Below, piece after piece: positions 2,832 through 60,212 of a DNA stretch of 64,000 bases. Made by a program: the position numbers and the translations under genes. Within the stretch, counting starts at the first letter, position 1. Each line of letters starts with the position of its first letter. The DNA comes from a virus (lineage: Duplodnaviria > Caudoviricetes): positions 1 to 64,000 of the IMG/VR virus record IMGVR_UViG_3300029288_000143. One strand, given 5' to 3'. The notes beneath the pieces are model-generated. The model ran no database searches. It was not told where the DNA came from and worked only from the letters and a program-made list of their open reading frames with translations.

Positions 2832-5108
2832 ATGTTTAACTCACCAAAATATAATTTCTCGTCTGGGTTATTTCGGCCTGAGCCCAGAACTGCAGCTTTC
2901 GGGCGACAGCACCGCAAAGCTAGCCTGGATATGGCTGGCAATATGGTGGGGGCCGGTGGCGGGCAGAGACAGATCTATTCCCCGCTATACGAGCGTGCTG
3001 AAGCTCCTACTCTCGTTGAAGAATATCTTCCTACCGATACTAGAACGCAGAACAAGCTATTCAGAAATATTCTAGCGTACGATGCAATTGCCGGCACCAC
3101 AACGGAGTACTGGTGCTCGATGGCGTTTGGGGATGAAATTTTCCTTAGTGGCATTGAAGATAATGCCATCATGCACCTGTACGAAGACGCATTGTCGGCC
3201 TCTGGTGTCGTCCCACTTATGCCTTTGATGCTGAGTGAATACCTCACAATTGGCCGACTATTTTACTTTATGATGCCGAATCCAGGTACTGGTTATTGGC
3301 AAGGCACTAAAATTCTAGATCCAGACTACGTGCGCTTGGTGGCACCGCGACTGCCTGGGCTCGACCCCATCATGGACTGGCAAGCCAGCACCGATGACCA
3401 GGCTTGGGCCACGATGAACGATCCGCGCGCCGCTCTGCAGCGCAGCCTCATCGAACCGAAAATCGTCAAAGCCATGGCGGGCGGTACGACAATTCCTCTG
3501 GACCCAATTAATTCGTTATTTCTACCGCGAAAGGTTCATGCCGTTGACGACAACGGTATGTCGTATCTCTGCCGTATTTTGCCTTTCAAGATTTACGAAA
3601 AAGCAATTCTCGATGCTTCAATCCAAGGCGCTAGACGTCGTGCGGGCCCGGTTTGGTGGGCGACAGTACCCAACGACTACAAGGCCGAACAGATTGAACA
3701 AATCATTGAGCAATTGTTTGCTGCCGAGGAAGACCCCGTTGGCGGTAAAGTTGCTTTCCGCGAAGGGGTAAATATCCAGCTTCTCGGGACTAAAGATGAC
3801 GTCATCAAGCTCGGCGATGACTGGGACTTCCTCTTCAAAGCCAAAATGGCAGCATTAGGTATTTCTTCGGCCTTCCTGGAAGGCGATACCAATTACAATA
3901 CCCTGGAAACGATTCTTTCGTCTTTCCTGGAAAAGCTACGTGGTGTTCGCGCTCTGTTTACCCGAAAAATTATTCAGGAAAAGATTTTCCGCACGCTGGC
4001 GCAGCAGCACGGGCATGTGCGACGTAGCAAAGCCGAACTCAGCCACCGGATTCGTATTTCACGGAATAGAATTCCCAACGACTCAGACCTGATTCTACCT
4101 AAGATCGAGTGGGACAAATCTCTTGAGCCCAGAGCAGACAAAGATTATTGGGATATGCTGACTTCTCTGGAGGAGAAGGGTTTCCCAATTCAGATGCGCA
4201 AGTGGGCACAAGCTGCAGGTTACGATATCAAAGAAGCTCTGCAAAATCAATCAGCAGAATTGCAGGATCGCGCGAAGATTTACGCGTACAAGCGCGCATT
4301 GATCGAGCAGGCGGAAGCTGCTGGATTTGACGGCAAGGGGCAATACCTGGGAGGCGAAGGTGGAGGTGGCGGGGAAACGGGTGGATTTGGAGATTTAGGC
4401 GGAGGGGAAGAAACTGGTATGCCGGAATTGGGCGGGGAAGAAGAGGCTCCGGGCCTTGGAGGCGGCGAAGCCGGCGGAGCAGAAATGCCTGCGCTTTCCA
4501 TGGAAGAAGAGACTTCTGCCGCACCACCTGCGCCACCCGCGGGTGGGGGTGAAGGCGCAGCTGCAGGGCCCGGTGGGGAAGGCGGCGGAGCAGCAGCCGA
4601 ACTGCGCAAACCGCGGTTTACCGTCAAGCAGCCAGCAACACAATACCGCAAGGGTTCTATTTATTCCAAGCCGGTGGATTTAGAAGCGTTACTCGCTAAG
4701 ATTCCAATCTGGGAATCTGGGCTTACGGTTGGGTTACCGAGACGGCGTGTTGCGCAGTTACTCGATGAAATGACGCGGCGAGATCCACGTGATCGGCGCG
4801 GACCAGAGTTTTACCGTTGGGCACGACGAGAACAGCTCTCGACCTTGCAGGCCGACATTGTCGAATACTGCGCGGCGCGCGTTGGGATTGTAGAATTTCC
4901 AGAGATGGCCAGCGATTCAGTCGCCGTGCTGGCCAAAATGTTAGTTAAACAGGCCGATATTACTGGATTGACTCCAGCTTTGGACGAAGAACTGGACGTT
5001 GTTGGGCGTATGACCGAGACTGATCCGCTCAGTACGGCTATTGGCTCAAGCAAATTGACGTCACATTCCCTTCCCGATAGCAAACTCCTCACCGGACTGA
5101 CTGAATAA
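2832..5108 (+). CDS. portal protein with Gly/Glu-rich linker and C-terminal extension
   Basis: position after terL; size; portal-like features (LPFKIYEK...GARRRAGP, helical core, KMAALGISSAFLEGDTNYN). Confidence 0.75.
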   Translation: MFNSPKYNFSSGLFRPEPRTAAFGRQHRKASLDMAGNMVGAGGGQRQIYSPLYERAEAPTLVEEYLPTDTRTQNKLFRNILAYDAIAGTTTEYWCSMAFGDEIFLSGIEDNAIMHLYEDALSASGVVPLMPLMLSEYLTIGRLFYFMMPNPGTGYWQGTKILDPDYVRLVAPRLPGLDPIMDWQASTDDQAWATMNDPRAALQRSLIEPKIVKAMAGGTTIPLDPINSLFLPRKVHAVDDNGMSYLCRILPFKIYEKAILDASIQGARRRAGPVWWATVPNDYKAEQIEQIIEQLFAAEEDPVGGKVAFREGVNIQLLGTKDDVIKLGDDWDFLFKAKMAALGISSAFLEGDTNYNTLETILSSFLEKLRGVRALFTRKIIQEKIFRTLAQQHGHVRRSKAELSHRIRISRNRIPNDSDLILPKIEWDKSLEPRADKDYWDMLTSLEEKGFPIQMRKWAQAAGYDIKEALQNQSAELQDRAKIYAYKRALIEQAEAAGFDGKGQYLGGEGGGGGETGGFGDLGGGEETGMPELGGEEEAPGLGGGEAGGAEMPALSMEEETSAAPPAPPAGGGEGAAAGPGGEGGGAAAELRKPRFTVKQPATQYRKGSIYSKPVDLEALLAKIPIWESGLTVGLPRRRVAQLLDEMTRRDPRDRRGPEFYRWARREQLSTLQADIVEYCAARVGIVEFPEMASDSVAVLAKMLVKQADITGLTPALDEELDVVGRMTETDPLSTAIGSSKLTSHSLPDSKLLTGLTE

Positions 5109-10045: not shown

Positions 10046-10318
10046 ATGACACCTAAATTTATTCGCGTTGCTGGGAAATTATACCGCAAGGCCGAGGGCC
10101 TCGAAGATATCGAAGCCGCACTCAATGCCGTCGTGAAGGCCAAGAGCGTGCTCCAGGGCCTCGGAATTGATTTCTCCGACCTCGTGCAGGCAGAGAAAAC
10201 TCTCAAAGCAGAAGCTCCGAAACCCAGCACGCAAAAGATTGATGCCGCGGTAAAGCCGGCGCCAGAATTAATTCGCGTCGCCGGCAAACTCTATCGCAAA
10301 GTACCAACCCCAGCCTAA
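10046..10318 (+). CDS. 90-aa protein with a hairpin tag at both ends
   Basis: RBS AAGGA before ATG 10046; FIRVAGKLYRKA...LIRVAGKLYRKV. Confidence 0.8.
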   Translation: MTPKFIRVAGKLYRKAEGLEDIEAALNAVVKAKSVLQGLGIDFSDLVQAEKTLKAEAPKPSTQKIDAAVKPAPELIRVAGKLYRKVPTPA

Positions 10319-14588: not shown

Positions 14589-14618
14589 GCATAATTGGGC
14601 GAAATTCTTCAGGTTATT

Positions 14619-17600
14619 ATGAAAAATTTAGACTGGACTCCTGATACCGCGGAACAAGCCGGCGAGGCCATCGGCATCGCTTGGGATACAGCGGAATTTA
14701 CACCGGAAGATTTGCTTCAGGGTATGAATGTCGAGCTTGAGCACTGTTCAGACCCAGATACCGAAGTAATTACTTGTAATTCTGAAGATACTGCTCGAAT
14801 CGCTTGGGCACACCTTAAAGAATCGTCCGCATATTATCGCAATCTAGCTAAAATGGAACAAAGCTTTAAAGAAGCCTCCGCCAGAACGGCCGCCGAGCTT
14901 GAACCCGAGGACTTGGCTAAAGCGCGCGGTCTAGAAAAAACTCGTCCTGTAGTTGACCCCTATGAAATTCGTGCGCGCGAAATTCTTAAAGAGCAAGGCA
15001 ACGAGCAGCCGACAAAAAAAGAACTCGATGCAGCCTACGATTTAGCCTCACGTGAAGGGCGAAAGCCCGGCGCGGCACCGGCCCCAGAAGCCGCGTCCGA
15101 GCCAGTTAAAATCAAGCGCGGAAAAAAGGTCTATAAGGCGCCCAAGCAAAAAGCTGAAGAGCCCAAGCCCGACAAGCAAGAGTTCATCGCGGCTTTCCTG
15201 GCCGATTATGACCATAGGCGCAAGTCTTTTATCATTGATAGTCTGAATGCGCTACGCGCTGATAAATCTATTTCTAAAGAGCAGCGCGTTCAAGTAGGTA
15301 AAACTATCGCGGCCATGCAGCCCGAAGCTCTGGCGGCGTTTGCTTATTCTAAAGCACTTGCTGATTTTGAGACCAAAGCAAAAACTAAGGCACAAGAATC
15401 GGCTTTTCACACCAAAGTAAAACAATACCTCAAAGCGCAGGGTATCGAAGACTATACGCAAGAGCAATGGAGCGCGGCAGTTTCTGCGATCATCGCCCAA
15501 GAGCGCAAAGAAGCCAAAGAACTAGAGAACACCAATATAGAAAAAGGCACCAAGCATCTGCAAGAGAAGAAGGAAACTGTAGACCCAGAAGACGAACAAA
15601 ATGATCAACAGGTTGCGGAGTTCACGCAGCCGCTAGTCACGTCTGCGGTCAGTCAAATCAAGTCTTTTGTCAAAAATCCAAAGGCGGAAGTCTGGACACA
15701 GTATCCTGGTGCAGATAAAACCCGGTGCTTCGTTTTAGATGTGTTGGTTCCTCGCGGTGAGCGCTACGCTGCACGCGTAGGTAATTATCTCAATATACCG
15801 GCTGATGTTGTGCTCGGTGCAATAGAATCATCCGGCGCAGCGTATAAAGAATACATTACATACATCTCAGAGTTTAATACAGAACTCACCCAGGCTTTAA
15901 CTGCAGCGTTTGAGGCTGAATTACCAAAGCTAGCACCGTACATAGATTTGGGTTTAGACAAAAAAGACACAGCGGATGCCGCCGACGATAAAAAAGCTAA
16001 ACCGAAGATTAAATCCGATGTCCCCACACTTGACACCAAGCTCATAGGCTGGGAGCTGGAGATATTTGATACTGTAGCGTTTGGGGAATCTATTTCTGAC
16101 GCACCCGAAGGTTTGCTTTTGGTTGCTACAATCGAAGAATCGTATATCGCCCATTGGTCCGCTGTGGACAAAGCGGCAATCAAAATTCTGCATACAGACA
16201 TTCCTAAAACAGTTAAAAATCCAGGTAAGTGGCCTGATTGGGCAAAAACTGACAAATGGTTCGACGTCAGCACCGAGATGGCAGAACCCAGCGAAGCCGT
16301 GGTCGTGGCACAGCTTGCGAAGTACGCTGGCGGAAATGATTCCTACAGTCTAAGCGCTAGTTCGGCGCTCAAGCTCAAGCGTGATTCTGGTTCACCAGCG
16401 TACACTAAATATTTTGCTAAAAAGTTCGAAAATTTAAAGACTAAACCAGAAAAGACCGATACTCCGGTCATTGCGACAGAGATTTTCCGTGATTATTTAG
16501 AATTACCCGAATCAGATCCGCTACAGTCGCTAGCCGAAGCCATCGTTATGGAAAAAATGGGAGATATAGCGGAGCATCAGACAGCCAGAATACAAGATCA
16601 AGGATATACAGATTGGATGGTCCTGGTATACGATTCAGTCAAGCAGACTGTGATTCCTGACGCGCCCAAAGGTCTATTGCTTTTAGGTATTATTTCCAAA
16701 AAAGATAAAGAACAGCACACTCAGGCGTTGGCACGACGCAAAGCCATTATCAATAGTGCGCAGGCTACAGGGGCACAGCAGCTTGAACTTTTTGGGCCCA
16801 ATGCGGGGCGCGGTGAAGGCCAAGGTGTGGCTGAGTTTACCAAAAAGGCCGAGGCTGAACTAGGACTTTCCGAGGATGAAGCCGATCTATGGCGCCAGTA
16901 TTTCATTGTATCGTTGAAGCAAACTCAGCACACTCACGTGAAACCTATGCCGCGCAAACCAAAAAAATTCAAAACTGAAACAGGCAAGCAAGTGACTATG
17001 AAGCCCGACGAATCTGAATTCGCTGAAGATATTTCACAAATTGGTAAATCGGACGTCGAAACCTACGACCAGCGTTACAGCAGCGTGAAGACGGCGGTGG
17101 TTAAGGACTGCAAAGAAAAAGACCTGGATGATCGCCCCAAGGCCGAGCAAAAAGTTTGCCTCTACAGCGAAGAGGGCAAGCTGCTCGGCCGGCATCCCAC
17201 GGAAGAATCGGCGGAAAAGCAACGCCGCAAGGTCGAGATGGAAAAGCACTCGGCCTACTTCAAAGTCAATCCTCTGGCTTTCGTTTCGGCAGACGAAATT
17301 TCTGATTACTACGAAGAGCAACATCTCCGGATGGCCTATGGGTTCTATGACGCAGACCAAGCGCAAAGGGCCCAAGCCAAAGTAACGGCAATCTGGAAAA
17401 TGCGCAAAGCTCGAGTTGGCGCAGAGTTGACCTATACCAAGCAAAACGGCAACGAAGTAGAATTCATCGGTACGGTGGACAGCGCGCGAACGTACCGAGG
17501 TACGGCTGGGCTGGATCCGGTAGCCATCACTTCCATCAATCCCTTTGAAGAATACGCCCAAGGCAAAATTGGCAACGACACGGCTGCACTGACCGCCGCA

Positions 17601-18344
17601 CTGCAGTCTTGGCACGGAACGCAAACTAAAGTCGCTTCGAAAGGCAAAACCATGCTTAAAGTTAAAGCTTCAGCTCTTCTTCGCATTGCGGAACTCATTG
17701 AGGTCGATGCCCCGAGTAAAGAACAGATTCGTGCCGCTGGGCTCAAGTGGCTCGCCGAGGCAGTAAAACCACGACAGCGCACTGCGGCAGATCTAACTCC
17801 TCGCGTTGAGATGATGGACGCGCTGGAAGATCTAGGTATTGTGGTGAAGAACTTCCAGGACGAAGGCAAATTTGTCGGCATGGTTAAAGATATCGGTAAT
17901 GCCTTTGCCGCACAAAAAGACGCCATGGGTCTAAAACTGTGGAACGCGCTCAAGGCGGAGCTTTCGGCGCAGCTACGCGGAATGGCTGAAGATATTGGTT
18001 CAGGTGCTTCCGAGCAAGAAGGCTTCGCTGAGGCGCTAGGTGAAGCCATTAAAACCGCAGAAGGCAAAGTTCAGGCTTTCTTAGGCAAAGCCCAAGCCCA
18101 GCCCAGCGGAGTTGCAACAGCAGAAGTCAAGACCGCACTGAACGCTCCAGTATTCGCGCCACCGCAGGACCCCACCACAGAACTGCAGAGTAAGCTAGCA
18201 TATATCCTCAATACCATCGAAGACTACATTGCGCAATATGCAGGCGATGCCGCCAAACTCATGGAAGTAAAAGGCGCGCTGGTTCGCGCTTGTGCTTCAG
18301 CCTATATTGATTTGAATTCACCGCGCGCCGCAGCCAAGAAATAA
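14619..18344 (+). CDS. large multidomain head-associated protein with N-terminal DUF5661-like domain
   Basis: GMNVELEH...IAWAHLKESSAYYRNLAKME; internal VCLYSEEGKLLGRHPT..A..Q..VEM module; ATG 14619 with AGGT RBS (ORF track starts at TTG 14595). Confidence 0.7.
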   Translation: MKNLDWTPDTAEQAGEAIGIAWDTAEFTPEDLLQGMNVELEHCSDPDTEVITCNSEDTARIAWAHLKESSAYYRNLAKMEQSFKEASARTAAELEPEDLAKARGLEKTRPVVDPYEIRAREILKEQGNEQPTKKELDAAYDLASREGRKPGAAPAPEAASEPVKIKRGKKVYKAPKQKAEEPKPDKQEFIAAFLADYDHRRKSFIIDSLNALRADKSISKEQRVQVGKTIAAMQPEALAAFAYSKALADFETKAKTKAQESAFHTKVKQYLKAQGIEDYTQEQWSAAVSAIIAQERKEAKELENTNIEKGTKHLQEKKETVDPEDEQNDQQVAEFTQPLVTSAVSQIKSFVKNPKAEVWTQYPGADKTRCFVLDVLVPRGERYAARVGNYLNIPADVVLGAIESSGAAYKEYITYISEFNTELTQALTAAFEAELPKLAPYIDLGLDKKDTADAADDKKAKPKIKSDVPTLDTKLIGWELEIFDTVAFGESISDAPEGLLLVATIEESYIAHWSAVDKAAIKILHTDIPKTVKNPGKWPDWAKTDKWFDVSTEMAEPSEAVVVAQLAKYAGGNDSYSLSASSALKLKRDSGSPAYTKYFAKKFENLKTKPEKTDTPVIATEIFRDYLELPESDPLQSLAEAIVMEKMGDIAEHQTARIQDQGYTDWMVLVYDSVKQTVIPDAPKGLLLLGIISKKDKEQHTQALARRKAIINSAQATGAQQLELFGPNAGRGEGQGVAEFTKKAEAELGLSEDEADLWRQYFIVSLKQTQHTHVKPMPRKPKKFKTETGKQVTMKPDESEFAEDISQIGKSDVETYDQRYSSVKTAVVKDCKEKDLDDRPKAEQKVCLYSEEGKLLGRHPTEESAEKQRRKVEMEKHSAYFKVNPLAFVSADEISDYYEEQHLRMAYGFYDADQAQRAQAKVTAIWKMRKARVGAELTYTKQNGNEVEFIGTVDSARTYRGTAGLDPVAITSINPFEEYAQGKIGNDTAALTAALQSWHGTQTKVASKGKTMLKVKASALLRIAELIEVDAPSKEQIRAAGLKWLAEAVKPRQRTAADLTPRVEMMDALEDLGIVVKNFQDEGKFVGMVKDIGNAFAAQKDAMGLKLWNALKAELSAQLRGMAEDIGSGASEQEGFAEALGEAIKTAEGKVQAFLGKAQAQPSGVATAEVKTALNAPVFAPPQDPTTELQSKLAYILNTIEDYIAQYAGDAAKLMEVKGALVRACASAYIDLNSPRAAAKK

Positions 18345-30139: not shown

Positions 30140-30493
30140 ATGGCCTATGCAACGTCCATCACGATGTATCGAAATCGCAACCACACCGTCAGGGTAACGG
30201 TGGACCTCACGACCTTGGTGTCGATCCAGAACGCCACCGTGCGGTTTTCAGTTCGGCGCGGGGCCGTGACGGAAAACGGCGCCATCGTGATCAACAAAAC
30301 AAATCTTCCCAGTATTGTGCTGGGTGCTGAAGTCATCTTGCCCGACACCGTCGAGTTCTACCTGCAGCCCAGCGATACCTCAGGGTTGACAGCAGGAAAT
30401 TACACGGCTGACGCGACCATCACGACGACGCTCGGTACCTTCCAACTCTTGGCGCCCTTGGCCCTGACGCTCATGGAGCCCGTGACACCGTAA
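30140..30493 (+). CDS. BppU N-terminal-like Ig domain protein
   Basis: ITMYRNRNH.V.VTV...ATVRFSVRR...L.PSDT.GL.AG.Y..D..IT. Confidence 0.6.
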   Translation: MAYATSITMYRNRNHTVRVTVDLTTLVSIQNATVRFSVRRGAVTENGAIVINKTNLPSIVLGAEVILPDTVEFYLQPSDTSGLTAGNYTADATITTTLGTFQLLAPLALTLMEPVTP

Positions 30494-31599
30494 TGGCCGA
30501 TTTCAACGATCTCGACCTGACGCAATACACCCCGGCAGAATCGGATGACATCCGCGAAGCCGATTTGGATTTGGTACTGCTCATGATGTCGAGTGACGCC
30601 GACGCGCCTGGGCAGATTAATATGGACAACATCACGACCGGAACCGATCTGGGGTCTGACATGGCTGTTTGGGCTACTCTGCGTAATCGAGTTTTGACCG
30701 ATGCCGTCAGCACGACCAACCGCGCCTGTCAATTCCTGGCGTTTGTTGATGAGCATTTGGTCACGACGGCCGGCTGGACTCGTGTCGGTAGTGGTGGCGG
30801 AACTGCCAGTGGTCTCTACGGATGGGGCGCCGCAAAGGTCCTGCCGGCCTTTGCGGCTTCCCCTGGGTTAATGAAAACCCTGGCCTGGGGCCTCTATCAG
30901 AACGCCAGTGGTGCTCAGGTACTGTTCAGCCTGTCAACCGCCTACTGTAAGATCCAACTGGCCCCTCAAGGCGGGTTTGCCGCCGGGGCGTCCGATGAAG
31001 ACACACTGCCAACGGCACCGGCCGAAAATCTCGTCCTGACTACCACCACGACTTACACGAATGTGGGCGCTAATCTCAATCAAGTGTTCACGTTTGCCTA
31101 TACTGCGGACCATAATTCATTTATATTTTTCGGCAAATTTGGCGCCGTCGACAACCTTGCGTATGCGATCGTGAAACTTGAGGATTACAAAACCGGCGAT
31201 ACCCGACCTTACTGGGCCTATTGCAATGCCAGGTCTGACGCCGATAATTGGTCATTACTGTTGATGTCATCCACGCCCATAACCGACAGCATGATCGGCT
31301 GGCACCCCACGACCGGCAAACAGGTCTACTCGATCTTGAACCCCGTGACCAACTCAGCCGATGTGTTTCTGAACATGCCGGTTGACCCAGTCAGCGGATA
31401 CCACCAAAAACTAGAATGTTTGCTGGGCTGTACGACCGCGGGCTCAATTCACTTGCGTGGCAAGATACCCGGAGTCTACCGAGTGTCCAGCGCCTTGGCA
31501 ACCGGCGACAAGCTCAGCCTGTCCGGCGGCGTGTATGAGCAGGTGGTGATCGGTGATTATGCGGTTCCGTGGATGAGTTCCGACGCGATGACGTGGTAA
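30493..31599 (+). CDS. virion structural protein
   Basis: TAATG coupling; beta-rich; fibre block. Confidence 0.65.
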   Translation: MADFNDLDLTQYTPAESDDIREADLDLVLLMMSSDADAPGQINMDNITTGTDLGSDMAVWATLRNRVLTDAVSTTNRACQFLAFVDEHLVTTAGWTRVGSGGGTASGLYGWGAAKVLPAFAASPGLMKTLAWGLYQNASGAQVLFSLSTAYCKIQLAPQGGFAAGASDEDTLPTAPAENLVLTTTTTYTNVGANLNQVFTFAYTADHNSFIFFGKFGAVDNLAYAIVKLEDYKTGDTRPYWAYCNARSDADNWSLLLMSSTPITDSMIGWHPTTGKQVYSILNPVTNSADVFLNMPVDPVSGYHQKLECLLGCTTAGSIHLRGKIPGVYRVSSALATGDKLSLSGGVYEQVVIGDYAVPWMSSDAMTW

Positions 31600-31603
31600 T
31601 ATC

Positions 31604-32347
31604 ATGACCAGATATTTAGTCTACCGAAATGCTGTTTATCGCATCGCTTCCATGCCGTTGCAAGTTTTGCAGTTGGGCCCTGGCCAGAAATTCGATCCTG
31701 ATTTCAAGACTTCCTGCACGCCTCCTTGGCAGGTTAACCCCTTCAATTACAAGCCGCTGTGCAGCAGCGGTAATCAACAACCGCTCTGGACCTCATCATA
31801 CGACTACGAGGCAAAAAGTACTGAATGGCTAAGGTACTGCGCTCGCGGCTATGAAGACGACATTGGGGAACAGGCCGTCATTTTTGAAGTGTCACCGTCT
31901 GCACGTGTGATGCATATTTTGAACGAAGACGACTTTGAAACAGCTTTAGGTCTATATCCTGGTGAGCCTTCCAACGACATGAAACGCATGGGAATGGGCC
32001 GACCTTTAGATTGGAACGCTGTCGCGCAGGAGTACGATGGATTTCATGTAGGGCGCGAAGCAATTTCTACTTCAGAACTTCGGGAGTGGAGCGTCGAATC
32101 GACCGTATGGTTTAACCCGAAAGTCTTGACGGTAAAGCAAATAGTTGACATCCAACATTACTGTGACGCCGCTGGACACGGTCGTAGTTTGTCCCCACAA
32201 GAGCGTAAAGACATCAAGCAACAAAAAGAACAAACAGAAGAGTCTTTCGGGGAAAAACTTGACCAGTGGCTCGAGCACAGGACTGGGCCACAACCACAGC
32301 CGCCCCATGACCAGTACAGGTTCCGTTACGAAATACCCCGGCCATAG
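31604..32347 (+). CDS. tagged protein, possible ADP-ribosyltransferase-like fold
   Basis: N-terminal tag YLVYRNAVYRIA; core KP..LWTS..W.RYC..LDW..V.QEYDGFH..WSVESTVWFN. Confidence 0.55.
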   Translation: MTRYLVYRNAVYRIASMPLQVLQLGPGQKFDPDFKTSCTPPWQVNPFNYKPLCSSGNQQPLWTSSYDYEAKSTEWLRYCARGYEDDIGEQAVIFEVSPSARVMHILNEDDFETALGLYPGEPSNDMKRMGMGRPLDWNAVAQEYDGFHVGREAISTSELREWSVESTVWFNPKVLTVKQIVDIQHYCDAAGHGRSLSPQERKDIKQQKEQTEESFGEKLDQWLEHRTGPQPQPPHDQYRFRYEIPRP

Positions 32348-32363
32348 CAGCAAGGAAAATTCA

Positions 32364-33420
32364 ATGCCGACAAAACTGCAATACCGTGGTCATGTTTACC
32401 GGCAAGCCAACCCCTGAATGGTGGGGACAGGACCAAGATCATCACTACACGCAGCCCGCAGATCCCGAGACTGAAATCCCGGTGGCAGATCTGCTGCGGG
32501 AATTCGACGAGATGATCGAGATCGCGTGCCGAGACGGCACCTGGAATGTTGATCCATATCTCTTCGGCATGGCCAATGGCATGATTTTCATGCGGTCAAT
32601 AGTCAGCGGCGAAGAACCTCAGTATTTGGAGGCGCCGGCCGAGTGGTCGGGCGAGTCCAGTGGGGTAGAGGCAGAATCGGATAAGCGTTCACTTGCGCGG
32701 GGTGAAACTACACGTTACGTTACCCGTGACTATCTTCGCCAATATGTAGAGTCTACCGGTGTCGATTTGGACGACATAAAGCGTCATTATGGCCTCGGAC
32801 AACATTCGGCCAGTGCCCAGTACCGACGGGGTTTTGTCGACGGGCAGGATTTCGGGCATGCTATTTTAGACGACGCGGCCCAACTTGAGCATGGTACCAC
32901 AGCACTACAACGTGATGTCGACCGATTAGGCTGGGACGGGGCCGTTGAGCACCAGCAAGATTTAGGCGACGCGGCCCAGCAACGTCTGGACCCCAATGCC
33001 ATCAGCAAAACCATGTGGCAAATGGGCGTGCGGGATGCCAAACTGCTCGGCCCAGGGCTTATAACAGTCGAAGAGGCGAAAGCTAGGGCGGCCAGAAGTG
33101 TCGCCAGCACTAAACAAGAAATATTGGCAACCCTGACCTCCAAGTTTAATTTCGGCGAACCCAACGAATTTGACACACAAATCAGCACCGAAGCGGCCTA
33201 CGCGCAGGAGCAGGACGCCATGGTGGCGTGGACAGCAGTCCGGCAGTACATCGATTCCGTGCTGCGGCAGCTCCTTCCCGTCACCACGACCGAAACAGAT
33301 TTCGGCATGGCCCAAACCATCCTTGGTCTCATTGAGGTGGCGTCACATGTCGGTCGTGTGCGTTGCCGATGCTCAGATCCTTGGCGACTGCATGTCGGCA
33401 TCACGACGCTCGCCAAATAG
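32364..33420 (+). CDS. tag mini-ORF (32364..32417) joined to a 344-aa ORF by a +1 shift at CCC-TGA, or a single-base error
   Basis: RBS AAGGA-ATG; MPTKLQYRGHVYRQANP-stop; +1 frame open from 32386 to 33420. Confidence 0.65.
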
Positions 33421-33712: not shown

Positions 33713-34186
33713 ATGCCAGCCAAATCCTACTACGCATTTGCCTTTGGCAAAGCCGATTTCGAAAACAATATTTTAGTTCCTCTGAGTGCTGCGTTCCGTC
33801 ATTTCTGCATGGCAGAATGGTGTAAAGCGCTCGGCACTACACACAAGTTTTTCGATCACTGGTCGGCAGAAGTCGACAATCTCACCGACACTTACCTGGA
33901 AGCTGTCGTGCAGCCAACGACGCTGCAGCCGGCTGGCAGAATTAAAGTTTATCTCCGCGTAGTTGCCCGGCTGCGCGATCAAGACGAGCACTTGCAGAAC
34001 CTGGCGTTCCAGCACTATTGCAAGTCATTTCCAGAACAGCATCCGAAAACTACACGGCTGCCCAAAGTCGTGATCGACGCATTCTGGCACGACATCCATC
34101 TCCGCACCAAAGCTGCACTCGTCGACACCCGGCAGACAGGGCGCATTTGGCTATTCGAGTCTGTTTTCAGCCCGATTTCCGCTTGA
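33713..34186 (+). CDS. helical protein, paralogue A (weakly DUF29-like)
   Basis: paralogous to 34218..34697. Confidence 0.75.
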   Translation: MPAKSYYAFAFGKADFENNILVPLSAAFRHFCMAEWCKALGTTHKFFDHWSAEVDNLTDTYLEAVVQPTTLQPAGRIKVYLRVVARLRDQDEHLQNLAFQHYCKSFPEQHPKTTRLPKVVIDAFWHDIHLRTKAALVDTRQTGRIWLFESVFSPISA

Positions 34187-34217: not shown

Positions 34218-34697
34218 ATGACTACTGTATGCCGTATTGGCTTCGCATTCTCAAAAACTGAACTCGAGAACCAGATGTTGGTCCCGCTGCGCGCCGCATT
34301 CCGCCACTATTGTTTGGTCGCGTGGTGTCGGCTACAGGGCACCACATATCAGTACTACGACCACTGGCAGGCGGAGGTTGTGAATCTTACTGCAGCGTTT
34401 TTCGATGCGCTGACGACGCCTTCAACACTTAAACCTGCCGGTAGAATTAGAGCATACGAGCACGTCGTCGCAGGAATCCGAGATAATACGATTGTGTTCG
34501 AGGAAGCAGCACGCGACCACTATTTGGACGCCTTTCCCGAGCAAGAAGACAAGATTAAGAACAAGCGTTTGGACAAAGCTACATTGGATAAATTCTGGAT
34601 TTTATTGAACGCGCGTGCGAAAAAGAACCTCGTCGCGAACAAACTCGTGGGCAAACGCTGGCAGTTCGAATCAGTTTTTGGTCCTATCGACGCTTAG
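34218..34697 (+). CDS. helical protein, paralogue B
   Basis: shared LVPL.AAFRH.C...WC...GTT....DHW.AEV.NLT, L.PAGRI, W.FESVF.PI.A. Confidence 0.75.
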   Translation: MTTVCRIGFAFSKTELENQMLVPLRAAFRHYCLVAWCRLQGTTYQYYDHWQAEVVNLTAAFFDALTTPSTLKPAGRIRAYEHVVAGIRDNTIVFEEAARDHYLDAFPEQEDKIKNKRLDKATLDKFWILLNARAKKNLVANKLVGKRWQFESVFGPIDA

Positions 34698-58968: not shown

Positions 58969-59553
58969 ATGTCACAGCGCCTCCAATTCCGTGGGCACAA
59001 CTACCGCCTGTACACTCCGAAAAGCCAACGCCGTGAATTTCGCATGGCGGTTGCGGGTCTATGGCGCGACGTCACGACAGTAATTCGGTATCTCGCAGAA
59101 AAAGGAATTGATCCAGTAGTTGTCGGCGGCCTCGCCGTGCAACACCACGGCGTAGAGCGTCTGACCGAAGATATCGATATCTTGATCTCCAGAGCTGCAT
59201 ACACGAAGCTCGTTGAGGAAGGCAAGATTAAGTTCGGGCAGCTGAAAATCATCCCCGGCACGGAAATCGATGTGCTGACCGAGGGAAAGGACAACAACCC
59301 CGATCCTGAATTCATTCGAGCCGGAGATTCTAATTTCCCGACGTTTGCCGGTTTGATCTACCTGAAGCTGAAAGCGAACCGACTTAAAGACCGAGGCGAT
59401 GTCGCGGAGCTACTTAAAGCCCACGAGTTCAATATCGAGGAACAGCAGGAAATCCTAACGTTCCTGCCAGAAGAGCTAAAAATTAGATTTTTAGCCATTT
59501 GGGACGAAGCCGGGCAAGAGCACGACAAACGCAAGCAAATGGTGGAAGAATAA
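58969..59553 (+). CDS. nucleotidyltransferase (Pol-beta superfamily, AbiEii/DUF6036-like) with N-terminal tag
   Basis: VVGGLAV..HG..R.TEDIDI; LKLKANRLKDRGDV; tag RLQFRGHNYRL. Confidence 0.8.
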   Translation: MSQRLQFRGHNYRLYTPKSQRREFRMAVAGLWRDVTTVIRYLAEKGIDPVVVGGLAVQHHGVERLTEDIDILISRAAYTKLVEEGKIKFGQLKIIPGTEIDVLTEGKDNNPDPEFIRAGDSNFPTFAGLIYLKLKANRLKDRGDVAELLKAHEFNIEEQQEILTFLPEELKIRFLAIWDEAGQEHDKRKQMVEE

Positions 59554-60212
59554 TGCAACGTGTGTTTTCAACGCTGAACGATCTCATCGCGCAAGGCGTT
59601 ATTACCGATTATGCTCTTGGTGGCTCCGTTGCGTTCATGTTTTACTGCCAGCCGTTCCTGACCAACGACACCGATTTCTTTGTACAAATGCCGGGAAGCG
59701 GACTGCTAGTCTCGCTCTCGCCAATCTACGCTTACGCGGCAGAACATAATTTTCCTCTGGACCATGAGCACATCGTTGTCGATGACGAGCCGGTGCAAAT
59801 CATTCCAGCGCCCTCACCACTCTACGACGAAGCAATCGCTACAGCGCAGCAGCGGACAATCGAAGGACAGAATGTAAAGGTCATGCTGCCGGAATATCTC
59901 GTCTGCACGGCACTGAATGCCGGCCGAATGAAAGATTTCGCAAAAATCGAAAAACTGCTCGAGGAAGCAGAAGTCGATCTGAGTAAACTAAAGGAACTCA
60001 TTACCCGGTTTCAGCTATCTGCGCAGTGGAAGCGCTACCTTGTCGCCATTGGAGTTACTGATCCAGCTTTTCTGCATTTGGCGGAAACAAAAGCAACCTG
60101 GCGCCGTGCACAAGCCGATAAACGGATGGAAGACAAACTACAAGAAATAAAAAAGCTGCGCACCAGAGTCAGCGCAATCCGCTATAGAAACGCACTGTAC
60201 AGACCTGTTTAA
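59553..60212 (+). CDS. second nucleotidyltransferase with C-terminal tag
   Basis: ALGGSVA..FY.QPFLTNDTDFFV; AGRMKD; ends RVSAIRYRNALYRPV; TAATG coupling. Confidence 0.8.
   Translation: MQRVFSTLNDLIAQGVITDYALGGSVAFMFYCQPFLTNDTDFFVQMPGSGLLVSLSPIYAYAAEHNFPLDHEHIVVDDEPVQIIPAPSPLYDEAIATAQQRTIEGQNVKVMLPEYLVCTALNAGRMKDFAKIEKLLEEAEVDLSKLKELITRFQLSAQWKRYLVAIGVTDPAFLHLAETKATWRRAQADKRMEDKLQEIKKLRTRVSAIRYRNALYRPV

Follow-up and report, generated by a model that had tools for sequence, protein, structure and literature searches.

Two open reading frames of a tailed phage are the halves of one tag-cargo gene, separated by a single base at a CCC-TGA shifty stop

CCC_UGA is a documented +1 shifty stop that is used by several Listeria phages for their major tail component, and CCC_UAA is used in SPP1 and in the Lactobacillus phage Q54 (PMC3082878). 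The shift site of the Listeria phage tsh gene is (AAA) CCC_UGA (PMC5009743), and in phage shifts of this type the stop codon itself is the stimulator (PMC5009743, PMC3082878). [quoted passage not shown] Half of 19 E. coli genes ending with CCC_UGA shift at more than 1%, and indels compensated by low-level frameshifting are recognised as a class (PMC5009743).

Here, we analyzed a site of this kind in a phage belonging to the Caudoviricetes (IMG/VR virus record IMGVR_UViG_3300029288_000143, positions 1 to 64,000; this stretch of 64,000 nucleotides is hereafter called the window). The window is part of a 78-kb contig, C6, found in a 1.59 Mb bin. C6 is a phage contig encoding a terminase large subunit (423-2471), a portal protein (2832-5108), an HNH endonuclease, and Laminin_G_3 fibre-like proteins. 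Its portal is approximately 27% identical to those of jumbo phages, e.g., phiRSL1 and Erwinia jumbo phages, and 57% identical to those of two large IMG/VR contigs, L002 and L003. The terminase of related phages (L002:5787-9557) comprises 1257 aa versus 682 aa in the window; approximately 500 of its residues (336-842) are without counterpart in the window and may correspond to an intein or an inserted domain.

The first-pass annotation of positions 32,364 to 33,420 had proposed that a ribosome binding site and an ATG at 32364 direct the synthesis of a 17-aa tag that stops at CCC-TGA (32412-32417), and that this tag is joined to its cargo, encoded by a long ORF, only by a +1 shift. The features of the locus are as follows:

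31604..32347, plus strand: upstream neighbour, a tagged gene product with N-terminus YLVYRNAVYRIA (tag-family context)
32352..32356, plus strand: Shine-Dalgarno (SD)-like AAGGA, 7 nt 5' of ATG 32364 (sequence and RBS survey of the contig)
32364..32417, plus strand: frame-0 ORF of 17 codons and TGA, encoding the tag LQYRGHVYRQA and ANP, the first three residues of the ANPxWW motif of the cargo
32386..32394, plus strand: possible own starts of the +1 ORF (GTG 32386, ATG 32392), without SD; the product would be untagged and would lack ANP
32406..32649, plus strand: ANPxWW motif and two-helix DGxWNxDPY..GMANGM domain, spanning the break and widespread in phages (HMMER, alignment, and model)
32411..32414, plus strand: CCCC run with a one-base surplus relative to homologues, which read AAC CCN NNN TGG TGG (codon comparison and tblastn frame switch)
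32416..33420, plus strand: continuation of the cargo in the +1 frame, 334 codons and TAG; the fusion product would be 351 aa
32650..33417, plus strand: orphan C-terminal 250 aa, without homologue in any search and poorly modelled

The short ORF was directly confirmed in the sequence. Its ATG, preceded by the AAGGA at 32352-32356, begins 16 nt downstream of the stop codon of gene 31604-32347, and the peptide encoded in frame 0 is M P T K L Q Y R G H V Y R Q A N P, followed by the TGA at 32415-32417. The last sense codon is CCC (32412-32414), located within the CCCC run at 32411-32414, and with the following TGA-A it forms a potential +1 shifty stop, in which a P-site codon that can re-pair in the +1 frame stands directly before the stop (AAC CCC TGA A, 32409-32418). 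The +1 frame (CCT GAA TGG TGG ...) is open to the TAG at 33418-33420, 334 codons past the Pro, in agreement with the approximately 335 codons initially described. The long ORF had also been described as devoid of a convincing RBS and, indeed, no SD-like sequence was found upstream of GTG 32386 or ATG 32392, either in the sequence or in the RBS survey of the contig. The public protein proposed by the gene caller (P0001) starts at ATG 32392 and comprises 342 aa. An ATG placed directly after the TGA (TGA ATG G) opens another 17-codon ORF in frame 0 (32418-32471), which is probably meaningless, although it is conceivable that it acts as a re-initiation sink. The gene ends the late structural block and is followed by a 290-nt intergenic gap. 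Right after this gap lie two tandem paralogous ORFs (33713-34186 and 34218-34697, encoding 157 and 159 aa) with similar N-termini and upstream sequences and no family match.

The tag ORF and the long +1 ORF are the two halves of one gene, and only a +1 frame change at CCC/CCCC-TGA joins them. When CCCT was read as one Pro, the read-through product (P0151, 351 aa) aligned with its homologue P0005 from Met1 to residue 95 with 60% identity and a gapless junction, so that the protein begun in frame 0 continues in the +1 frame, colinear with P0005 over residues 1-95; the proposal that tag and cargo are one protein connected by a +1 change is thus supported. In a tblastn search of the window with the P0005 ORF, the match was distributed over two frames, with the switch located between 32410 and 32426. 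Three homologues carry the tag fused in frame to the domain, namely P0005 (N-terminus MPRILHYRGHRYRQANPSWWG...), P0002 (MLIYKGSLYQA...LANPSWW), and P0017 (MFAYQGYLYRIANPTWW), and P0005 is a single ORF beginning with the tag followed by RQANPSWWG. The contig encoding P0005 (L004) also encodes a portal 55% identical to that of the window, indicating that P0005 comes from a related phage. In this related phage, P0005 (L004:4907-6550), the closest tagged homologue, is encoded 1.4 kb downstream of the portal gene and is composed of the tag, the ANPxWW domain, a YYHGTS stretch, and DUF5662; in the window, a 1249-aa protein (14595-18344) begins with DUF5661.

The motif [RQ]-x-A-N-P-x-W-W is also kept in the untagged homologues P0003 and P0013 and is internal in P0004, P0007, and P0062. 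In the window, it is split, with ANP in frame 0 and EWW in frame +1. Because the conserved ANPxWW straddles the break, the frame change can be placed at the Pro codon, within the CCCC run, and the break thus interrupts a conserved motif instead of separating two modules. QANPEWWG, predicted at the junction, corresponds to QANPSWWG in the homologues, and the junction peptide is now fixed by homology, whether the break is a mutation or a selected device. The tryptic junction peptide of the predicted fusion would begin with QANPEWWGQDQDHH, and the N-terminus of the untagged alternative would be MFTGKPTPEWW. In three larger metagenomic proteins, '...YRQANPxWW' is found internally, directly before the same domain (P0004 residue 206, P0007 residue 294, and P0062 residue 219), and the tag and ANPxWW may travel as one module in some lineages.

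The domain that had been recognised in the long ORF proved to be real and widespread: an exhaustive HMMER search returned 730 hits, all on aa 8-95 of the +1 ORF. In the structural model, this N-terminal domain had a pLDDT of 89-98 and formed a two-helix unit with an invariant DGxWNxDPY..GMANGM loop; the tag was modelled with low confidence (53-61) and was not placed against the domain. No significant structural match to the domain was found by a PDB profile search or by Foldseek against PDB and BFVD, and the C-terminal part of the cargo had no significant match in the ESM Atlas. In the Brevundimonas phage Delta, the domain is located inside a protein annotated as MazG-like. Pfam and PHROGs gave nothing meaningful when searched with the cargo, with the tagged proteins, or with the initial 60 aa of the tags, and no short-motif family was found for the tag.

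The tag, a hairpin-like sequence of approximately 12 aa, may be carried by either terminus of a protein and recurs in a dozen or more unrelated ORFs. In three further long ORFs of the window (5108, 20389, and 55761), the strict motif YRG[HQ]xY falls within residues 1-10, and no other ORF of the 1.59 Mb bin carries it at its start. A looser motif, h-x-[YFV]-x-[GND]-x-x-Y-R-x-A, is present at the N-terminus of at least 12 ORFs of C6, including 31604, and its rate per candidate start is 3.4-fold lower elsewhere in the bin. N-terminal copies of the tag are carried by the window ORFs 5108, 10046, 11084, 20389, 31604, 53144, 55143, 55761, 57483, 58196, and 58969, and several of them are followed by L/V/K-A-E, reminiscent of prohead-protease sites. 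The tag is also present at the C-terminus of three ORFs (near 10271, 60177, and C6:64147), and one internal copy was found on the contig. Two adjacent ORFs (58969-59553 and 59499-60212), both matching the DUF2204 nucleotidyltransferase family just above the Pfam cutoff, carry the tag at the N-terminus in one case and at the C-terminus in the other. The tag is also found in the relatives L002 and L003, where no homologue of the cargo or of the upstream gene was detected; one tagged L002 protein has a weak PARP-like match. Unrelated proteins of one phage thus share a terminal tag, as in T4-type capsid targeting, and by this analogy the tag would fit a targeting peptide for virion-internal or injected proteins. 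Only in the 32364 copy is the tag separated from its cargo.

The codons at the junction were compared with those of four homologues at the DNA level:

L004 (P0005): AAC CCT TCC TGG TGG
L083 (P0002): AAC CCA AGT TGG TGG
L085 (P0017): AAC CCA ACT TGG TGG
L005 (P0003): AAC CCC AAT TGG TGG
Window: AAC CCC T GAA TGG TGG

The four homologue junctions are all continuous, and the window is longer by exactly one base, at a homopolymer. A DNA-level survey of 74 viral loci containing the domain revealed no other case of a tag or an NPxWW located in a different upstream frame and, among the best 150 of the 730 HMMER hits, an N-terminal truncation at xWW was only observed in the window's own call. Retention of CCC-TGA in homologues, which the first-pass annotation had put forward as a check, was therefore found in none of the four junctions, and neither the site nor the two-frame arrangement is conserved, in a comparison restricted to distant homologues (which differ in their C-termini and are 55-60% identical in the domain). 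None of the collections searched contained a close relative of this phage: the exact DNA pattern of the junction with a variable C run, used to look for a sister genome, gave no hit in viral and metagenome contigs, the cargo alone had no match in viral contigs, and a word-based search of 5.8 billion proteins returned the window's own call only.

We consider it probable that the locus is a real and recent one-base insertion allele of the tag-cargo gene, at most incidentally leaky in the +1 direction at CCC_UGA. The gene would encode one protein of 351 aa composed of an N-terminal YRGHxYR tag, the ANPxWW two-helix domain, and the orphan C-terminal part, and in this phage population an insertion of one base at the Pro17 codon would have changed AAC CCT GAA to AAC CCC TGA A. 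Ribosomes would start at the RBS-associated ATG 32364, synthesize the 17-aa tag peptide, and mostly terminate at the TGA. The full-length tagged protein would only be made when peptidyl-tRNA-Pro slips from CCC to CCU, with the stop codon waiting in the A site. At a bare CCC_UGA, such a slip is expected to be unprogrammed and low-level (approximately 1-2% in E. coli or Salmonella reporters), and we regard the allele as the result of a recent frameshift mutation, slightly leaky, in an accessory gene rather than as a conserved recoding device. That the insertion exists in the phage DNA, is recent, and is accompanied by leak-through is what we infer.

With an extra base in AAC CCT GAA, CCC TGA A arises automatically. 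The gene with the run one base shorter contains 54 homopolymer runs of at least three bases, and the expansion of each of them by one base creates an XXX_stop in four cases and CCC_TGA in one. Under a mutation model, a shifty stop would thus be hit by chance in 2-7% of cases, which is not extreme; moreover, frameshift alleles are most likely to persist at leaky sites. The decay of the downstream frame that would characterize an old pseudogene was not seen. As the +1 frame remains intact over 334 codons, the break must be young or the frame must still be translated; this openness, which reflects either a very recent break or selection through translation, can also be held against the insertion of a single base. 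In the same sense, pheL, which shifts at 15%, has the same geometry, a very short ORF (15 codons) terminated by CCC_UGA_A, and the single break seen in the 78-kb contig coincides with a +1 site that is among the best known in bacteria. In addition, conservation could be compared with distant homologues only.

A +1 shift that evolved as a programmed event appears unlikely, because the prior for N-terminal +1 recoding is low and neither conservation nor an SD-like or structural stimulator was found. In such a case, mostly free tag peptide would be produced, and a set fraction of CCC to CCU re-pairing would give tagged cargo, which would dose the cargo or couple its synthesis to RF2 or tRNA-Pro status in a prfB-like geometry. 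The main point in favour of this possibility is the intact downstream frame. The site also has the canonical form of a shifty stop, with an A after the CCC_UGA like that of pheL, and CCC_UGA and CCC_UAA, which had been invoked as established +1 sites, are both documented as such (PMC3082878, PMC5009743). As tRNA-Pro GGG, CGG, and UGG are all encoded in the bin, re-pairing from CCC to CCU is cognate, with tRNA-Pro(GGG) available. At the (AAA) CCC_UGA site of Listeria phages, nothing but the stop acts as a stimulator (PMC5009743), the four Cs are present in two assemblies, and the start context is strong at ATG 32364 and absent for the +1 ORF.

However, the split was conserved in 0 of 4 homologue junctions and in none of the 74 viral loci, and no SD-like or structural stimulator was detected in the sequence. 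No SD-like element was present 5' of the shift site, the downstream 103 nt did not fold better than shuffled sequences (z = -0.09), and the 141 nt around the site folded worse than shuffled sequences (z = +1.78). CCC represents 28% of the Pro codons on contig C6 and 19% in the bin, and since it is common, no rare-codon effect is to be expected, whereas this codon is rare in Listeria phages. In the known phage cases, structural proteins acquire a C-terminal extension through a shift at the 3' end of their genes; here, by contrast, the product made without a shift would be a 17-aa peptide. Finally, the break cuts the conserved ANPxWW, and one extra base in CCT GAA is sufficient to produce the TGA. 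The programmed nature of the shift, as initially proposed, is thus unsupported. Two other routes to a frame change were considered and rejected: transcriptional slippage, because a 4-base C run is too short, and slippage at the preceding AAC codon, as tRNA-Asn is unable to re-pair on ACC.

An error in the reads or in the consensus, with the phage truly containing three Cs and a continuous 351-aa gene, seems quite improbable, although the break sits in a 4-base homopolymer and all homologues are continuous. The exact four-C protein call is present in four sources, whereas the continuous three-C product was absent from an exact look-up in a collection of 15 billion proteins. The same CCCC was also found at the DNA level in the Logan assembly of run SRR8542065 (L007); for Logan, the reads of public sequencing runs are assembled separately. 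Agreement of two separately built assemblies on four Cs makes an assembler slip at this position unlikely and weakens the case for a read error, although the two assemblies are not independent at the read level if they use the same reads. The Logan contig differs from the window at a single position in 28.3 kb (window 30393-54679), the assemblies being otherwise 100% identical, and long host genes are intact. The rpoB, rpoC, and dnaE genes of the bin are single open frames and C6 contains many long ORFs, indicating that the assembly is not indel-rich. The sole difference between the two assemblies is, however, also a homopolymer length that breaks a gene in one of them. It is located at 30647-30650, with GGGG in the window and GGGGG in Logan (L007:255-259), at codon 52 of a 368-aa late gene (30493-31599), and the extra G splits the Logan version into ORFs of 55 and 312 aa; this difference is due either to polymorphism or heterogeneity in the population or to a homopolymer read error. 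The first-pass annotation had noted that an extra C resulting from a sequencing error would look identical to a shift site: an extra C indeed fits better than a programmed shift, but it looks real at the assembly level, in two assemblies, and does not look like a simple assembler slip.

Synthesis of untagged cargo from ATG 32392 or GTG 32386, perhaps by re-initiation after the TGA and with the 17-codon ORF acting as a leader, is very improbable, for although untagged homologues of the domain exist (P0003 and P0013), approximately half of the genes of this phage have no recognisable SD, and ATG 32392 is 23 nt 5' of the stop, which should be within the range of local ribosome scanning, the conserved ANP of ANPxWW would become PTP, untagged homologues keep ANP and an RBS of their own, no SD precedes either start, and ribosomes elongating from the strong upstream start would occlude an internal one.

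If the break is only a mutation, as we favour, the lesson is one of annotation: the 342-aa call from ATG 32392 is wrong, and the gene encodes a 351-aa tag-cargo protein with a one-base frameshift. It would also provide a natural case of an indel falling on a shifty stop, at which low-level slippage could sustain a small supply of product. We regard it as rather unlikely that CCC-UGA at codon 17 is instead a selected switch, giving mostly free tag and a small RF2- or tRNA-Pro-sensitive fraction of tagged cargo, thereby dosing a virion-targeted or injected protein, the free tag perhaps competing for a docking site. If it were selected, phage +1 recoding would extend from structural C-terminal extensions to the dosing of a tagged, probably delivered protein, and a targeting peptide would, for the first time, be separated from its cargo by a +1 frameshift, in a late phage gene arranged like prfB. 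The function of the tag, which at least 12 proteins carry at their N-terminus in this unstudied lineage with a jumbo-phage-like portal, would then also become more accessible.

The closest described systems are the tsh gene of the Listeria phages PSA, A118, and A500, together with SPP1 and Q54, which share with this locus the same chemistry, i.e., a P-site tRNA-Pro on CCC, a stop codon in the A site, and re-pairing on CCU, in a phage late gene. However, these shifts are conserved among relatives, are located at the 3' end of the gene, extend an abundant functional product, and occur in hosts where CCC is rare, whereas the present site lies at codon 17, is unconserved, gives a non-shift product of only 17 aa, and uses a CCC codon that is common. 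Like the present locus, pheL is a very short ORF ending with the identical CCC_UGAA, and its shift is 'apparently incidental', a by-product that was not selected (PMC3082878). The 15% shifting of pheL needs its own nascent peptide (a penultimate Phe and a residue encoded 10 codons upstream), whereas the tag peptide is unrelated and has a penultimate Asn; conversely, the +1 product of pheL is neither conserved nor functional, whereas the +1 frame here encodes a real protein. In the autoregulatory shift of prfB (RF2; CUU_UGA_C, codon 26), a short 5' ORF also ends with UGA and a whole functional protein is encoded in the +1 frame, but an SD-like stimulator is located 3 nt upstream of the prfB site and prfB is conserved throughout the bacteria; the present locus differs on both counts. 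As a working analogy, the tag would be comparable to the T4 capsid targeting sequence of the internal and injected proteins IPIII and Alt, as a short terminal peptide on unrelated proteins, some of them enzyme-like (nucleotidyltransferase-like and weakly PARP-like) in this phage, but it is also found at the C-terminus and internally. Finally, the G-run mutants of the herpesvirus thymidine kinase ('savior' indel) also have a one-base indel in a viral homopolymer, and they are partially rescued by low-level slippage at the mutated run (PMC5009743), whereas at the phage locus the rescue is putative and the indel is without known selective advantage.
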